Sequence record: NC_019399.1
Direction: 5' to 3' (one strand)
Source: Escherichia phage vB_EcoM_ACG-C40
Length of the DNA: 64,000 nt
The position numbers and the translations under genes were made by a program. The notes beneath the pieces are model-generated. The model was not told the DNA's origin and did not search any database. It saw only the letters and a program-made list of their open reading frames with translations. Of this stretch, positions 24,342 to 55,000 are shown in pieces. Every line of letters starts with the position of its first letter. Position 1 is the stretch's first letter.

Positions 24342-24345
24342 CAAT

Positions 24346-24374
24346 GGGGACCTTTCGGTCCCCATATTTTTATT
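24346..24374. terminator. Bidirectional rho-independent terminator between gene 54 and the convergent minus-strand ORF
   Basis: GGGGACC-TTTC-GGTCCCC hairpin with T-rich flanks. Confidence 0.7.
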
Positions 24375-24660
24375 TACGGAATGAAATGAAAGCAGAAACT
24401 GAAGCAACTAAACTGTCTTCAATATAAACTTCAATTTTTACCGGAGCTTCTGACTCAAATTTACCTGTTACTACACCTTGGAAAATACTTTCAGTCTGTT
24501 CTGGTTTTGAAAAATTTTCAGAAGGAAAAATTCCGAACTTTTTATCTGTTCCAAAAATTTTAATAAATTCATCGTAAACTGCTTCATTAAAAGCATTATC
24601 AGCAGGAATAACGCCTTCAACGACGAGCTCTTGGCCTAAAAAGCGTAAAGAAGATTTCAT
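24370..24660 (-). CDS. Hypothetical protein (alt.-3-like position)
   Basis: 96-aa ORF; GAGGAA Shine-Dalgarno inside the upstream 53-bp repeat element. Confidence 0.6.
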   Translation of the reverse strand: MKSSLRFLGQELVVEGVIPADNAFNEAVYDEFIKIFGTDKKFGIFPSENFSKPEQTESIFQGVVTGKFESEAPVKIEVYIEDSLVASVSAFISFRK

Positions 24661-24668
24661 TTTGTGTT

Positions 24669-24721
24669 CCTCATGTTATGTCAGTAAGACTACTGTAACA
24701 CAACACGAGGGACTTGTAAAC
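24669..24721 (-). promoter_or_regulatory. Early-promoter-like cassette with inverted repeat (copy 1 of a 53-bp repeat)
   Basis: Minus strand reads GTTTAC-18 nt-TACAGT, then CATGAGG Shine-Dalgarno region; 53/53 identical to 38376-38428. Confidence 0.6.
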
Positions 24722-25078
24722 TACATTTTGAACTTTTTAGTACGCGTAATAGGCATGCGTCGATTTTATACTGTTTCATTGTTTGAAGAGCAGTATCAAA
24801 AACAGCATTAATGACACCAATTGGATTTCCACCCAAGTTTTTAAGCTTAACTAATGATAGTTTCTCATTAACACCTATCATTACGATATGCATCATTTTG
24901 TCGCCTGGTTTAACGTTTTATCTGTATCACCGCCAGAGGTGTATGTACAAAATCTAAATCCAGGAAGCACGCTTTCTTCGCCGGCTTGAATAGCAAAAAT
25001 TTGTGGTATTTTATGCTTAGGATTTAAGTTAACAACCGGCGCCGAAGCGCCGTCAAATAATTATGTAATAAGTTCCAT
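24690..25078 (-). pseudogene. Degenerate duplicate of the alt 5' coding region
   Basis: Begins ATGGAACTTATTACATAA (MELIT*), continues with alt-like sequence (...NLNPKHKIPQIF...GFRFCTYTSGGDT...), 1-nt deletion, then a 68-aa ORF 24690..24896 (MMHIV...QYKIDACLLRVLKS) paralogous to Alt residues about 64-130. Confidence 0.7.
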
Positions 25079-25081
25079 GAT

Positions 25082-27133
25082 TTATCCTTGAACGAACTTG
25101 TAAGGCATGTTTGCAATATCTATGCAAGACGCAATAATTCCAAGAGATGATTCTACTTTCTGTTTAACATTTGATGAAACAAATGATGCAAAGTCAACTC
25201 TGTCTTCTATATCACCTGTCATTGTAACCAATTCACCAGTTTCCATTAAATGGTCTCCGTCATAGATTACCGATTCGGTGAGTTCTTCTGTGGTCATAAC
25301 TTCAGCTTGAATAAGCTTGTTGTTAGTTCTAACTGTTCCATCGTTGTAAGATGCATCGGTTATTTTATTAACTTTGACCATTAATCCACGTGGCAAAATG
25401 ACTTCCATTTCATTTGAAGGCGCTAAACTTCCACCGGGTAAAACAACATTAACCTTATCAGCCCCAGTAATAACCCATCCAATTCCAACTAAATTATCGC
25501 TAGAATTTACTAGTCCTTCATCAGTTTTATCAATAGAAACACTTAGACGCTTTTCGTCTGGTAAAACACCCACAGATGAATCAGTCATCCAAGTACCAAA
25601 AATATTTGGATATAATGATGTTGACACAAAGTTTCTAAAATAAAAAACTCGATTTTTTACCATTGCTTCGTATATTGAAGGTAACATTCGTTGTGAACGA
25701 TACAAAGTAATACCTTTTGGTAATCGTTCACCATTTTTAAAGGCTGAATCTAAATTATCAATGGCTTGTTCTATTTCAGGTGCTGTTAAAATACTTGTAC
25801 GCTCATCTGGATTATATAATCCCAAAAGAGCATTATTTATGTCTACATATCCTGAACCTACGTATTCACGAATTCCGCGTTTTTGTGCTGGTGTGTATTT
25901 AGATGAATCTTTATTTTCGACTATAGGATGTAATGACCATCCAGCGGTAAGAGCATATCCACGTAATTCTCTTCGAATAATCTTTGTTTTTATTGCATTC
26001 CAAGAATTTTGTACTAACTCATTTGCAGCATCTTGGTTTAAATGCGAATGTCTGTTAATATTTCTTTCAAACCAAGCACCTTTATATTTTTCTAAAGTAT
26101 CATCGACGATAGAAGCAATAGTTTCTAAAGTTTTTATTGAAGTAATAGATTCTTTTCGTAATTTTTCTAAAGCTTTATTTTTTATTTCTGCATTAATAAT
26201 GGATTCTTTATCTTCAGGAATTATAGAAGCTTCTCTGAATGCCATCCCAGCTGTAACACTGCTAAGAGCATTCTCTAGTGCAAATCCTGAAGTAGAAATT
26301 ACCGTTAATTCATTAGAATCAGAAATTAAAGGAGCGTCCGCTGGTTTATTTAATTCTGCCGCTGAAGCCTCAAATTTTTGAAACATCGGTGTTTCAAATC
26401 TAGAAGATTCCAACGACTGACTTTGTGCAATTGCTCTACGGGAAATTTTAACTTTAACGATTACAGCTTGATCAGAACGTTTATCATTTTCTTGTGCAAT
26501 AGATGCTGCAATTGCCTCATTTTTAGTTACTTGAGCTCCAGTATCTTTATTGATATAAACATCACCGACCTTCGATTCAACTTTAGTAAAGAGCTCGGTA
26601 CTAATTTCCGGAACCCCTGGAATGTCTTCTAGTGATACATTTTTGCGATGTATAAGAATATATGCATACTTTTTATCATAATCCCAGAGTTCCTTAAGAA
26701 GGACGTATCTGCCACCTGAACGACTACGGATAAGTCTATCAGCAATAACTTGAATTTGTCGAGCTTGACCAGCGGTTTTAGACTTAAGAATACGGAGCAT
26801 ACAGGCATCAATTTTATACTGACGCATCGTTTGCATTGCAACAGTAAAAACCGAATTGATATAATTAATTGGGCTTGGACCAAGACCTTTCAATTTAGCA
26901 ATTGAACCTTTAGCGGTTAATGTAAAAGGAACAATATGCATCATTTTATCGCCCATCTTTAAATCACGATTAGTATCACCTCCAGATGTATAGGTACATA
27001 AACGAAAGCCTGGTTGTTCAATTGCGTCATCAACATGAACTGAAAAAATTTGCGGTATTTTCTTCTTTGGATTTAAGTTTGTAATCGGAAGAGTAGTATC
27101 TTCGTCAAATAATTCTGTAATTAGTTCCATCAT
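25082..27133 (-). CDS. alt: Alt ADP-ribosyltransferase (virion-packaged)
   Basis: 683-aa ORF starting MMELITELFDEDTTLPITNLNPKKK, matches recalled T4 Alt. Confidence 0.9.
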   Translation of the reverse strand: MMELITELFDEDTTLPITNLNPKKKIPQIFSVHVDDAIEQPGFRLCTYTSGGDTNRDLKMGDKMMHIVPFTLTAKGSIAKLKGLGPSPINYINSVFTVAMQTMRQYKIDACMLRILKSKTAGQARQIQVIADRLIRSRSGGRYVLLKELWDYDKKYAYILIHRKNVSLEDIPGVPEISTELFTKVESKVGDVYINKDTGAQVTKNEAIAASIAQENDKRSDQAVIVKVKISRRAIAQSQSLESSRFETPMFQKFEASAAELNKPADAPLISDSNELTVISTSGFALENALSSVTAGMAFREASIIPEDKESIINAEIKNKALEKLRKESITSIKTLETIASIVDDTLEKYKGAWFERNINRHSHLNQDAANELVQNSWNAIKTKIIRRELRGYALTAGWSLHPIVENKDSSKYTPAQKRGIREYVGSGYVDINNALLGLYNPDERTSILTAPEIEQAIDNLDSAFKNGERLPKGITLYRSQRMLPSIYEAMVKNRVFYFRNFVSTSLYPNIFGTWMTDSSVGVLPDEKRLSVSIDKTDEGLVNSSDNLVGIGWVITGADKVNVVLPGGSLAPSNEMEVILPRGLMVKVNKITDASYNDGTVRTNNKLIQAEVMTTEELTESVIYDGDHLMETGELVTMTGDIEDRVDFASFVSSNVKQKVESSLGIIASCIDIANMPYKFVQG

Positions 27134-27153: not shown

Positions 27154-27161
27154 TATTTATA
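27154..27161 (-). promoter_or_regulatory. Late promoter TATAAATA for alt
   Basis: Minus-strand TATAAATA about 20 nt upstream of the alt start. Confidence 0.55.
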
Positions 27162-37522: not shown

Positions 37523-37872
37523 TTAGAAAGGTCCTGGATGTCTTCTGCGAACTTGTTGAAGGAGTTGTTGATTTGTTTTTCAACCAATCCTGGCTTATGA
37601 GCCACCACATCCGCCTTCTTTGCGTCTTTGCGCAGTTTTTCATTTTCACGCTCAATAGCAGCAATTGCCTCACGATTTTTATTATTCATCGCATCAATAT
37701 AATTATACTGAATTCGCAAATTATTTAATGCTAAGGCGTTTTCATTGGCCGTTTTTGTAATTTCAGTAACTGATGTTTCTAATCTTTCTACCTTATTTTT
37801 TAAAATAATAGATGTTCCGCCAAATGCTATTACAAGTAATAGCAATCCAGCTGTAAAATTACTTACATGCAT
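37519..37872 (-). CDS. Type II membrane protein with coiled coil, candidate i-spanin
   Basis: 117-aa ORF; N-terminal TM segment GLLLLVIAFGGTSIIL then heptad-rich periplasmic part. Confidence 0.7.
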   Translation of the reverse strand: MHVSNFTAGLLLLVIAFGGTSIILKNKVERLETSVTEITKTANENALALNNLRIQYNYIDAMNNKNREAIAAIERENEKLRKDAKKADVVAHKPGLVEKQINNSFNKFAEDIQDLSK

Positions 37873-38366
37873 AAAGTTTTAATAACCTCTATAATATCGT
37901 CTTGAGAAAGACCGTTAATTAAAATATGATGTTCAGCCGGAGATTTAGAAATTTTAAAGCACGCCGCAACATCTTCTGCCATATCCGATGCGCTACGATT
38001 TGGATTACTAATTCCAAGACGATGCTTTCCTGTCAAAGGATTAACGATGATATAGCATTTGCAGCTATTGATATGAACATTAGGTTGAGTCTGATTAATA
38101 AACACTTCACAATCATACTTAGCGAGTTGATTTTCTAAAAAGACTTTCATCTCCTCAACCGCATCAGGAAGCATATCACGGGCTTGCTCAAGACGACGAT
38201 TTCGATATTCTTTAATGGTTGTTTTCCGCTTTACTTGCTTAGCTAAATCTTTCTTAAGATCGGTGATATATCCAACTCGACGATTTCCTTTGAATACAGA
38301 AATCCCATCTGTAGTATCACCGTATGCTTCAACGACCATTTCAGTAGTAATGAGCTGCAAATCCAT
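37863..38366 (-). CDS. alc: Alc, inhibitor of host transcription
   Basis: 167 aa from MDLQLITTEMVVEAYGD; GAGGGA Shine-Dalgarno inside the upstream repeat; track start at 38381 is in frame 5 codons earlier. Confidence 0.85.
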   Translation of the reverse strand: MDLQLITTEMVVEAYGDTTDGISVFKGNRRVGYITDLKKDLAKQVKRKTTIKEYRNRRLEQARDMLPDAVEEMKVFLENQLAKYDCEVFINQTQPNVHINSCKCYIIVNPLTGKHRLGISNPNRSASDMAEDVAACFKISKSPAEHHILINGLSQDDIIEVIKTLCM

Positions 38367-38375
38367 CATAAAGTC

Positions 38376-38428
38376 CCTCATGTTATGTCAGTAAGACTAC
38401 TGTAACACAACACGAGGGACTTGTAAAC
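38376..38428 (-). promoter_or_regulatory. Early-promoter-like cassette with inverted repeat (copy 2 of the 53-bp repeat)
   Basis: Identical 53-mer to 24669-24721; stem GTCCCTC/GAGGGAC perfect in this copy. Confidence 0.6.
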
Positions 38429-38431
38429 AAC

Positions 38432-40019
<1,588 letters not shown>

Positions 40020-48055: not shown

Positions 48056-48150
48056 ATTATTTTCCTCTTTAATTATCAGCAGTATTGCCGATAGTTGTAT
48101 AGTACCATGGAAGGACAAGGATGTAAACAGTTTTGTGAAAAAATTTTTGA

Positions 48151-52066: not shown

Positions 52067-55000
52067 ATGGCCGAGATTAAAAGAAAGTTCAGAGCAGAAG
52101 ATGGTCTGGACGCAGGTGGCGATAAAATAATCAACGTAGCTTTAGCTGATCGTACCGTAGGAACTGACGGTGTTAACGTTGATTACTTAATTCAAGAAAA
52201 CACAGTTCAGCAATATGATCCAACTCGTGGATATTTAAAAGATTTTGTAATCATTTATAATAATCGTTTTTGGGCAGCAACGGATAATATTCCAAAACCT
52301 GCTGGAAATTTTAATAGAATTCGTTGGAAAGCATTACGTACTGATGCCGTATATACAACCGTATCATCTGGACCATATCAATTAAAATCCGGAGAAGCAA
52401 TTTCAGTAGATACATCAGTTGGCAATGACATTGAGTTTACTTTACCATCTTCTCCGCTTAATGGAGAAACCGTAATAATTCAAGATATCGGTGGAAAACC
52501 TGGCATAAATCAGGTTAAAATAAATTCTTCAAATCAGAGTATTGTCAATTTTAGAGGTGAACAGGTACGTTCAGTTTTAATGACTCATCCAAAGTCACAG
52601 ATGGTATTCATTTTTAATAATCGTTTGTGGCAAATGTATATTGCTGATTATAGCAGAGAAGCTGCGATTGTTACTCCATCGACTGCGTATCAAGCACAAT
52701 CTAATGATTTTATCGTACGTAGATTTACTTCTGCTGCACCAATTAATGTTAAACTTCCGAGATTTGCTAATCATGGCGATATTATTAATTTCGTTGATTT
52801 AGATAAACTGAATCCACTTTATCATACAATTGTTACTACATACGATGAAACGACTTCAGTACAAGAAGTTGGAACTCATTCCATTGAAGGCCGTACATCG
52901 ATTAACGGTTTCTTGATGTTTGACGATAATGAGAAATTGTGGAGATTGTTTGACGGGGATAGTAAAGCACGTTTACGCATTATAACAACTAATTCAAATA
53001 TTCGTCCAAATGAAGAAGTCATGGTATTTGGCGCGAATAATAGAACAACCCAAACAATTGAACTTCAGCTTCCGACTGATATTTCTGTTGGTGATACTGT
53101 TAAAATTTCCATGAATTACATGAGAAAAGGACAAACAGTTAAAATCAAAGCTGCTGGTGAAGATAAAATTGCTTCTTCAGTTCAATTGCTGCAATTCCCA
53201 AAACGTTCAGAATATCCGCCTGAAGCTGAATGGGTAACAGTTCAAGAATTAGTTTTTAACGGTGAAACTAATTATGTTCCAGTTTTACAACTTGCTTATA
53301 TAGAAGATTCTGATGGAAAATACTGGGTTGTACAGCAAAACGTTCCAACTGTAGAAAGAGTAGACTCTTTAAATGCTTCTACTAGAGCAAGATTAGGCGT
53401 AATTGCTTTAGCTACGCAAGCTCAAGCAAATGCTGATTTAGAAAATTCTCCGCAAAAAGAATTGGCAATTACTCCAGAAACGTTAGCTAATCGTACTGCT
53501 ACAGAAACTCGCAGAGGTATCGCAAGAATAGCAACTACTGCTCAAGTAAATCAGAACACTACATTCTCTTTTGCTGATGACCTTATCATCACTCCTAAAA
53601 AGCTGAATGAAAGAACTGCTACAGAAACTCGCAGAGGTGTTGCTGAAATTGCTACGCAGCAGGAAACTAATACAGGTATCGATGATACTACAATCATCAC
53701 TCCTAAAAAGCTTCAAGCTCGTCAAGGTTCTGAATCATTATCTGGTATTGTAACTTTTGTATCTACCGCAGGAGCTACTCCAGCTTCTAGTCGTGAATTA
53801 AATGGTACGAATGTTTATAATAAAAACACTAATAATTTAGTTGTTTCACCTAAAGCTTTGGATCAGTATAAAGCTACTCCAACGCAACAAGGCGCAGTAA
53901 TTTTAGCAGTTGAAAGTGAAGTAATTGCTGGACAAAGCCAAGAAGGATGGGCAAATGCGGTTGTAACGCCAGAAACGTTACATAAAAAGACATCAACTGA
54001 TGGAAGAATTGGTTTAATTGAAATTGCTACGCAAAGTGAAGTTAATACAGGAACTGACTATACTCGTGCAGTCACTCCTAAAACTTTAAATGACCGTAGA
54101 GCAACTGAAAGTTTAAGTGGTATAGCTGAAATTGCTACGCAAGTTGAATTCGACGCAGGCGTCGACGATACTCGTATCTCTACACCATTAAAAATTAAAA
54201 CCAGATTTAATAGTACTGATCGTACTTCTGTTGTTGCTCTATCTGGATTAGTTGAATCAGGAACTCTCTGGGACCATTATACCCTTAATATTCTTGAAGC
54301 AAATGAGACACAGCGTGGTACACTTCGTGTAGCTACACAAGTTGAAGCTGCTGCAGGAACATTAGATAATGTTTTAATAACTCCTAAAAAGCTTTTAGGT
54401 ACTAAATCTACCGAATCGCAAGAAGGTGTTATTAAAGTTGCAACTCAGTCTGAAACTGTGACTGGAACGTCAGCAAATACTGCTGTATCTCCAAAAAATT
54501 TAAAATGGATTGTGCAGAGTGAACCTACTTGGGCAGCTACTACTGCGATAAGAGGTTTTGTTAAAACTTCATCTGGTTCAATTACATTCGTTGGTAATGA
54601 TACAGTCGGTTCTACACAAGATTTAGAACTGTATGAGAAAAATAGCTATGCAGTATCACCATATGAATTAAACCGTGTATTAGCAAATTATCTGCCGTTA
54701 AAAGCAAAAGCTGTAGATAGTAATTTATTGGATGGTCTAGATTCATCTCAGTTCATTCGTAGGGATATTGCACAGACGGTTAATGGTTCACTAACCTTAA
54801 CCCAACAAACGAATCTGAGTGCCCCTCTTGTATCATCTAGTACTGCTACGTTTGGTGGTTCAGTTTCGGCAAATAGTGTACTAACTATTTCTAATACTGG
54901 AACAGAAACTCATCTGATTTTTGAGAAAGGACCTCAAACTGGAACTAACCAAGCACAGACGGTGACTATTAGAGTGTGGGGTAATCAATTTAGTGGGGAA

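Follow-up and report, generated by a model that had tools for sequence, protein, structure and literature searches.

Two copies of a 53-bp T4-type early-promoter cassette upstream of alt.-3 and alc, with a hairpin that probably limits translation to their own early transcripts

We analyzed 64,000 nucleotides of Escherichia phage vB_EcoM_ACG-C40 (NC_019399.1), hereafter called the window, in which a 53-bp element, GTTTACAAGTCCCTCGTGTTGTGTTACAGTAGTCTTACTGACATAACATGAGG, lies directly in front of two minus-strand genes, the homologue of T4 alt.-3 and alc. A sequence-only reading of this DNA had placed the element at two loci, and both copies, at 24669-24721 and 38376-38428 on the minus strand, were recovered with 0 mismatches. 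These were the only two matches in the window at 3 mismatches or fewer, with 0 expected from 100 shuffles; when the flanks are included, the two copies are 97% identical over 59 nt. The genes that the reading had named downstream of the element were upheld by Pfam matches to DUF5498 and ALC, respectively, as was its statement that each copy ends in the Shine-Dalgarno sequence of the downstream gene. The distance from the end of the element to the start codon is 8 nt for copy 1 (ATG of the alt.-3 homologue) and 6-9 nt for copy 2 (ATGATG of alc), and the stop codon of the upstream gene lies no more than 3 nt from each copy.

Copy 1 is flanked by alt.-3 and by what remains of a second Alt paralog. 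The alt gene (25082-27133, minus strand), whose product is a protein packaged in the phage head, lies downstream of a late-promoter motif, TATAAATA (27154-27161, minus strand), which is a likely source of late read-through into copy 1. The remnant (24690-25081, minus strand) corresponds to T4 alt.-1/alt.-2, as judged from the T4 annotation and from blastn against the full-length paralog of phage KRT47. The alt.-3 homologue itself (24370-24660, minus strand) encodes 96 amino acids and belongs to the T4 alt.-3 family. Our scan returned no terminator-like site on this strand between 25545 and copy 1; the next one downstream is a bidirectional terminator-like hairpin with a G+C-rich 9-bp stem (24344-24365, both strands), between the convergent alt.-3 and gene 54, with its T-run on the gene-54 side. 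Late transcripts of alt are therefore expected to continue across the cassette and into alt.-3. At the second locus, copy 2 is located between rnlA (RNA ligase 1, 38432-39556, minus strand), whose TAA stop lies 3 nt before the element and whose message is a read-through source, and alc (37863-38366, minus strand), the inhibitor of host transcription, identified by the Pfam ALC match (1.5e-91) and the T4 annotation.

Each copy reads, on the minus strand, as G-TTTACA, a 17-bp spacer, TGT, TACAGT, a predicted transcription start, a leader of about 25 nt and GAGG, with the start codon 5-8 nt after GAGG. In copy 1 the -35 hexamer TTTACA lies at 24715-24720 (GTTTAC, which fits the T4 early consensus, at 24716-24721), the extended -10, TGT (TGn) plus TACAGT, at 24692-24700, the predicted start, an A located 7 nt past the -10, at 24685 (equivalent to 123057 on the minus strand of T4), and the GAGG of alt.-3 at 24669-24672, 8 nt before the ATG at 24660. 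The corresponding positions in copy 2 are 38422-38427 for the -35 hexamer, supported by both the motif and the sigma-70 scans, 38399-38407 for TGT plus TACAGT, 38392 for the predicted start (136300 on the minus strand of T4) and 38375-38379 for the GAGGG of alc. The sequence-only reading had recognized GTTTAC and TACAGT, and both hexamers are present; its spacing needed correction, as the interval is the canonical 17 bp once the -35 is read as TTTACA. The alc copy was also picked up by a simple sigma-70 scan of the window, with a TG and a spacer of 17 bp. The -10 of T4 is TATAGT, compared to TACAGT in the window.

These features bear out the earlier suggestion of a T4 early-promoter-type element, and an independent GenBank annotation agrees with it. 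In the record of phage ASO78A (MZ726795), the alt.-3 element is described as ‘similar to’ the T4 early promoter GTTTAC(N14)gtggTAttaT, credited there to Miller et al. 2003, and both copies in the window fit this motif at every upper-case position. T4 early promoters have a UP/-35/TGn/-10 architecture (Hinton 2010, PMC2988021); in the UP region (-40 to -60), the sequence upstream of copy 1 is A/T-rich (aaaaagttcaaaatgta) and that upstream of copy 2 is less so (cccagaaggatactaagtt). Scanning the window for TTTACW-N16-18-TAnnnT returned nine sites on the minus strand, eight of which precede a Shine-Dalgarno sequence and a start codon, and one site on the plus strand. The two copies share with T4 early promoters the GTTTAC, the 14-nt gap, the GTGnTAnnnT-type extended -10 and a position directly upstream of early genes, but differ in their mutual likeness. 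From the -35 to the ATG, the other early-promoter cassettes of the window are 54-76% identical to one another, whereas the pair is 90% identical overall and 100% identical across the 53 nt, and no other pair in the window is so alike. Each cassette, then, is a T4-type early promoter of predicted activity joined to a 5’ leader and the Shine-Dalgarno sequence of alt.-3 or alc. We infer the promoter activity and the start sites from these features, the start being placed by the sigma-70 position rule; a differential RNA sequencing (dRNA-seq) dataset for T4 exists (GSE255091; bioRxiv 10.1101/2024.04.04.588121).

RNA that reads through the cassette from upstream folds, in silico, into a long hairpin of 18-23 bp. 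The promoter spacer, which follows the -35 without a gap, forms the 5’ arm (AAGUCCCUCGUGUUGUGU), beginning CCCTCGTG; the apex holds the -10 and the predicted start site together with a 5-bp inner stem (CAGUA/UACUG); and the leader, with the Shine-Dalgarno sequence at its end, forms the 3’ arm (ACAUAACAUGAGG...). The hairpin of copy 1 (24666-24713, minus strand) has a minimum free energy (MFE) of -24.3 kcal/mol and a z-score of -5.4 relative to dinucleotide shuffles, with all four bases of the GAGG paired; that of copy 2 (38371-38422, minus strand; 18 + 5 bp) reaches -31.4 kcal/mol and z -7.7. The sequence-only reading had noted a 7-bp inverted repeat, GTCCCTC/GAGGGAC, which is complete in the alc copy; the alt.-3 copy has GAGGAAC instead. 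In both copies this repeat is the mere base of a far longer imperfect palindrome, and folding of the two copies, as that reading had proposed, revealed the long hairpin over the Shine-Dalgarno sequence that it had missed. We looked for a stem-loop upstream of the -35 at both copies and found none of significance (z -0.8 and 0.0).

The predicted transcription starts at 24685 and 38392 lie 3’ of the entire 5’ arm, and RNA beginning there is devoid of that arm, with a folding energy of 0 to -1.5 kcal/mol. For alt.-3, freeing the Shine-Dalgarno sequence has an ensemble cost of 11.2 kcal/mol in the read-through RNA compared to 2.7 kcal/mol in its own transcript, and the corresponding values for alc are 14.9 and 1.0 kcal/mol. 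The alc copy of the window carries an extra G after GAGG (GAGGGAC, position 38375), which none of the 20 other alc copies examined has. This base contributes a further C-G pair to the hairpin, giving an MFE of about -32 compared to -24 kcal/mol in T4, and places the leader AUG (38381) in frame with alc, creating an open reading frame of 172 amino acids. A small open reading frame starting at the leader AUG (ACAUGAGG) was considered and rejected; it has no dedicated Shine-Dalgarno sequence, and one genome (AUAAGG) has lost the AUG while its stem has changed to compensate. Cleavage by RegB was likewise rejected, since the cassette contains GAGG and not the GGAG target (PMC3014915).

Hairpins accompany seven of the eight early-promoter sites of the window (z -2.3 to -7.7), and the -10 lies in the loop at seven of the eight. 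Beyond the two copies, there are five further hairpin-borne T4-type early promoters on the minus strand, with -35 starts at 48127, 47395, 35102, 31932 and 31540 (z -2.3 to -6.4), in which the 5’ arm is again the promoter spacer and the -10 again lies in the loop. The Shine-Dalgarno sequence is inside the stem at 38427, 24720 and 31932 (CCUUUGU/ACAAAGG), and at 48127 the outermost pairs reach it in part.

The resemblance to promoter early stem-loop (PeSL) cassettes that had been suggested for the element is borne out on published sequence features. A PeSL consists of an upstream stop codon, an A/T-rich stretch, a -35, a -10, a stem-loop, a Shine-Dalgarno sequence and a start codon (Arbiol et al. 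2010, PMC2839356). The stem-loop, which contains G-T pairs, may have any of five positions, the commonest being over the -10 or between the two boxes (PMC2839356), and later work includes PST/T4 in the class, giving the promoter as TTTACW-N17-TAYWAT (Comeau et al. 2014, PMC4122927). The cassettes share the stop codon, the -35, the -10, a stem-loop with G-T pairs that overlaps the -10, the Shine-Dalgarno sequence and the start codon; both copies fit TTTACW-N17-TAYWAT except for one mismatch in the -10; and one cassette type occurs at more than one locus, consistent with exchange via conserved ends. They differ in that the stem is unusually long (18-23 bp), reaches the Shine-Dalgarno sequence and is followed by no U-tract, and in that both copies adjoin conserved genes rather than ORFans. 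The five other hairpin-borne promoters of the window also fit the PeSL pattern of a stem-loop overlapping the -10. In itself, the element is ordinary and largely known, an early promoter of the published PeSL class that is present in T4.

The folds suggest how the two genes may be controlled. In RNA reading in from upstream, the promoter-spacer sequence would pair with the leader and the Shine-Dalgarno sequence and bury the ribosome-binding site; for alc this RNA would be the rnlA message, and for alt.-3 it would be transcripts of alt and of the alt.-1/-2 remnant, among them those made from the late promoter before alt. RNA from the cassette’s own promoter would begin inside the hairpin, without the 5’ arm, and leave the Shine-Dalgarno sequence free, so that alc and alt.-3 would be translated only while their own early promoter fires. 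Because the internal promoter is an early one, the predicted effect is early-only translation. On these models, the hairpin probably lets the two genes be translated only from their own early transcripts.

This arrangement has a precedent in T4. In e, soc, 49 and I-TevI, RNA initiated upstream folds an inhibitory helix over the ribosome-binding site (Uzan and Miller 2010, PMC3014915), and a late promoter located in the DNA of the 5’ strand of the helix gives a short transcript that is without that strand and is translatable (PMC3014915). In the cassette, the long RNA likewise buries the Shine-Dalgarno sequence in silico, and the internal promoter is placed such that its own transcript loses the 5’ strand. 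The difference is in timing: the internal promoter of the four T4 genes is late and delays translation, whereas that of the cassette is early and is predicted to confine translation to the early period. We found no late-promoter motif TATAAATA inside the cassette, and alc and alt.-3 are not among the hairpin examples in PMC3014915.

The hairpin could instead act mainly as a terminator or attenuator of upstream RNA, in line with a promoter-terminator reading of PeSLs, with the burial of the Shine-Dalgarno sequence being incidental. One RB49 stem-loop lowers lacZ expression downstream of it to roughly the extent that the rrnB T1 terminator does (PMC2839356), WebGeSTer calls the alt.-3 copy a rho-independent terminator in MZ726795, and the hairpins at seven of the eight early promoters of the window occur whether or not the Shine-Dalgarno sequence is included. 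However, no U-tract follows the stem; the alt.-3 copy runs on AACACAAAAUG and the Karam- and Moonvirus cassettes run on AAACAAAAUG, and neither copy (tails AACACAAAA and ACUUUAUGA) is among the 16 terminator-like sites of the window scan. Moreover, all four bases of the Shine-Dalgarno sequence are paired, covered by the 3’ arm, in 13 of 13 alc-type cassettes across seven genera, a cover that termination does not need. We regard termination as an unlikely main role, albeit one that is compatible with the translational gate and could add to it. A role in RNA processing or stability, such as an RNase III site at a gene boundary of a polycistronic RNA, finds some basis in the Tequatrovirus stem, a near-continuous duplex of 23 bp, which would be long enough for RNase III. 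Such a role appears quite improbable, given stems of only 9-17 pairs in the other genera, the lack of a match to any Rfam family anywhere in the window and the lack of any sign of cleavage in this analysis.

Within Tequatrovirus, we collected 22 distinct 53-mers, in which 97.7% of the pair cells are standard pairs. Pair 15-50 occurs as C-G, U-G and U-A, and so does pair 27-40; the T4 alt.-3 copy differs from the window at two positions, which are the two sides of pair 27-40, changed from C-G to U-A. Eight of the nine transition types in the stem keep the pairing, the exception being G29A, which creates a perfect TATAAT. The pattern also bears on whether the inverted repeat acts in the DNA, as a cruciform or through easier melting that exposes the -10. 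The location of the -10 in the loop at seven of the eight early promoters would suit such a role, as would the DNA fold, whose z-scores are significant for either strand (-6.8 and -5.5 in the alc copy). Against it, the stem includes G-U pairs, the sense fold beats the antisense fold in 10 of 13 cassettes, and the substitutions take the RNA wobble path from C-G through U-G to U-A. The loops of 12-23 nt would, in addition, be poor for cruciform extrusion, and the inclusion of the Shine-Dalgarno sequence would be left unexplained, making action at the DNA level highly improbable.

Alc homologues are present across the Tevenvirinae, and the rnlA-alc spacer is 59-64 bp long in Karamvirus CkP1, Moonvirus CF1, Jiaodavirus UTI-K4, Dhakavirus JS98, Kanagawavirus 305 and Winklervirus X20. 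In these six genera the spacer has the same order of elements, TTTACA, an anti-Shine-Dalgarno arm, TGTG-TAnnAT and a complementary arm with the Shine-Dalgarno sequence, and folds into hairpins with z-scores of -3.9 to -8.1. The arm sequences differ between genera (examples of arm pairs are UCUCCGUUUUUG/CAAAAACGGAGA, UCCUCAUCAG/CUGAUGAGGA and CUCCAUUUCGUU/AACGAAAUGGAG), and many positions have changed on both sides, such as offset 7, which occurs as CG, GC, AU and UA. The pairs compared are those of each sequence’s own MFE fold, anchored on the -35. We lean towards a shared structure on the basis of these anchored folds, and the evidence for a selected structure is stronger across genera than within the genus. 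In the Shigella phage SP18 (Gaprivervirus; GQ981382, 137827-138827), a partial duplicate of alc, alcb, comprising the N-terminal part, lies directly upstream of alca with a 13-nt spacer, and the promoter/hairpin cassette is not at its usual place before the full-length alc.

Several observations weigh against a conserved translational gate. Some variants break pairs (G29A, C12A, C13A and G40T), and covariation among the 22 Tequatrovirus 53-mers is not significant, as 78-98 of 500 column shuffles reach the observed values. Alignment of the cross-genus alc cassettes with MAFFT followed by RNAalifold misaligned the 3’ arms and found no structure, and the antisense fold is slightly better than the sense fold in 3 of 13 cassettes. 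Other early-promoter hairpins of the window lie over the -10 and stop short of the Shine-Dalgarno sequence; the general role of these hairpins may therefore differ, for example attenuation as the authors of the PeSL work propose. The alc cassette of the Mosigvirus-like phage F2 is without a hairpin covering the Shine-Dalgarno sequence (z -1.1), and the gate is therefore not indispensable for alc.

We then considered the age of the pair, which the sequence-only reading had ascribed to recent copying or recombination. The window belongs to Tequatrovirus, and both flanks of its copies match hundreds of genomes of this T4-like genus at 95-99% identity. T4 (NC_000866) has the element upstream of both alt.-3 and alc, its copies differing by 1 nt from each other and by 1-2 nt from those of the window; both copies are also present in T2, T6 and PST, and copy 1 is at the same place in KRT47. 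A word-11 BLAST search with the 53-mer found 995 places in 498 records, about two per genome, all at least 90% identical, indicating that the pair is a fixed feature of the genus and neither recent nor an artefact. An assembly artefact, which that reading had named as a possible source of the identity, is excluded, since hundreds of genomes that were sequenced independently have the same pair.

The two copies differ by 0-6 nt within a genome in 17 genomes picked for diversity rather than at random, from a survey of about 20 GenBank genomes to which IMG/VR and metagenome contigs added only about 20 loci. They are identical in three of the 17, namely the window, vB_EcoM-UFV10 (OP555981) and one IMG contig. 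Polymorphisms at positions 15, 16, 27, 29, 32 and 40 are common to both loci, which is compatible with occasional ectopic exchange but is no proof of it. Both copies of UFV10 carry the rare variant TATAATAATC, with a perfect -10 and a loop change, and are identical over 53 nt; since this variant is otherwise found in the sample only at the alt.-3 locus, UFV10 is a candidate for conversion between the loci. The alc start region of UFV10 reads ATAATG and not ATGATG. The shared polymorphisms and the identical pairs, including that of UFV10 with TATAATAAT in both copies, could also be taken as signs that the cassette was copied or recombined recently in this genome and is a mobile recombination hot spot that shuffles modules. 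The presence of the pair in essentially all 498 Tequatrovirus records argues against a recent event, and the mean distance within genomes (2.65) was not significantly below that between genomes (2.96; permutation p = 0.089, 17 genomes). A crossover between the direct copies would, furthermore, remove 13.7 kb that includes DNA ligase and gene 31.

The same reading had linked the element to cassette-driven module shuffling, and the alt.-3 locus does occur in three layouts: alt with a full-length second Alt paralog (KRT47, T2, T6, wV7, DalCa and EP01), alt with the remnant (T4 and the window) and a single alt (PST). In each layout the cassette comes after the final alt-like gene, and in KRT47, T2 and DalCa the first G of copy 1 is shared with the TAG stop of the full-length paralog. 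Compared with the intact gene of KRT47 (2058 nt), the remnant has lost 1.69 kb internally between 9-bp direct repeats, CTAAAAAGT, has a stop at codon 6 (GAA to TAA) and is frameshifted by a 1-nt deletion, and its start repeats that of alt (31 nt at 90%, 25051-25081 compared to 27103-27133). The deletion junction is this 9-bp microhomology, located 11 nt upstream of the cassette. Because the junction repeats lie outside the cassette, the deletion, the one structural change that could be mapped at the alt.-3 locus, was not cassette-mediated. In this respect, too, the pair differs from published PeSLs: it is fixed across the genus and does not mark a recent indel. Although the three layouts and the crossing of cassette types between the loci described below lend the idea of a mobile hot spot some support, we consider a recent copy in this genome improbable. 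In Yersinia phage PST (NC_027404, 120979-123039), a single alt-like gene precedes the cassette and alt.-3, where most relatives have two tandem paralogs; the single gene may be a fusion of the paralogs or the product of a deletion between them.

An older exchange accounts better for the distribution of cassette types across genera. In other genera the alt-alt.-3 spacer is 58-63 bp long with an early promoter directly after the stop codon, and its hairpin is small, confined to the spacer (CAC-N6-GTG), and leaves the Shine-Dalgarno sequence free. The alc cassettes of six genera form one cluster, and the alt.-3 cassettes of Karam-, Mosig- and Gaprivervirus, with the spacer-only mini-hairpin, form another. 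This clustering by locus across genera has two exceptions, the Tequatrovirus alt.-3 cassette, which is of the alc type, and the alc cassette of F2, which is of the alt.-3 type. The former looks like an ancient replacement of the resident promoter by an alc-type cassette in the ancestor of the genus, the direction being our reading of the clusters; the alc copy would be the old one, and both copies would since have been kept nearly unchanged by selection, perhaps with occasional exchange.

The reverse replacement, of the alc cassette by the alt.-3 type, possibly took place in the F2 lineage. The F2 alc cassette has the spacer mini-hairpin of the alt.-3 type, and its nearest neighbours are the alt.-3 cassettes of F2, CkP1, ChristianSchoenbein and VR20. 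The two F2 cassettes are 76% identical, which is not decisive because it is at the top of the background range of 54-76% for unrelated early-promoter cassettes; the F2 case, which rests on the shared mini-hairpin and the nearest-neighbour clustering, is weaker than the Tequatrovirus case. Escherichia phage F2 (NC_054913) is filed under Tequatrovirus, its Alc is 52% identical to that of the window, and its alt.-3 cassette shares 98% identity with the one in Mosigvirus ChristianSchoenbein. Exchange of this kind would run through motifs common to both ends of the cassettes, GTTTACA and AUGAGGA. It would be comparable to the promoter-associated shuffling at the internal-protein (IP) loci of T-even phages (Repoila et al. 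1994, as cited in PMC2839356 and PMC4122927), where T4-early-promoter elements with AT-rich stem-loops are also proposed to mediate exchange between loci; the difference is that genes are swapped there, whereas here the genes stay and the promoter cassette seems to be exchanged.

Elsewhere in the window, at 53468-54393, we observed diverged direct repeats of 29-68 nt with 65-79% identity and spacings that are multiples of 3 (108-681 nt), which look like a repeated peptide motif in a structural gene.

Taken as a whole, the results are explained best, and with a reasonable degree of likelihood, by paralogous early-promoter cassettes of the PeSL type that carry an early-only translation gate, the alc copy being the older one. 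The broader proposal is more tentative, and we advance it with some doubt: that hairpins burying the Shine-Dalgarno sequence are a conserved ‘early-only’ gate in the Tevenvirinae, under which alc and alt.-3 were put by cassette swaps between the two loci, with the alc type brought to both in Tequatrovirus and the alt.-3 type to both in Mosigvirus-like phages. In the literature searched, which did not extend to the older primary T4 papers, we found no description of a stem-loop of this cassette that covers the ribosome-binding site, of a covering hairpin upstream of alc that is conserved in at least seven genera with different arms, or of the Tequatrovirus alt.-3 promoter as a copy of an alc-type cassette; parts of these findings may have been published before.

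T4 serves as the reference for the timing of gene expression in phages. If the proposed gate operates, it would give PeSL stem-loops that reach the Shine-Dalgarno sequence a concrete function, the insulation of a gene’s translation from upstream transcription, and it would explain how T4 Alc synthesis is confined to the first minutes of infection. The cassette would also represent a compact and portable expression module of the ‘own promoter only’ kind. Finally, the broader proposal of a shared gate placed by cassette swaps would, if it holds, hint that the uncharacterised Alt.-3 is co-regulated with Alc and is perhaps its partner in host takeover.

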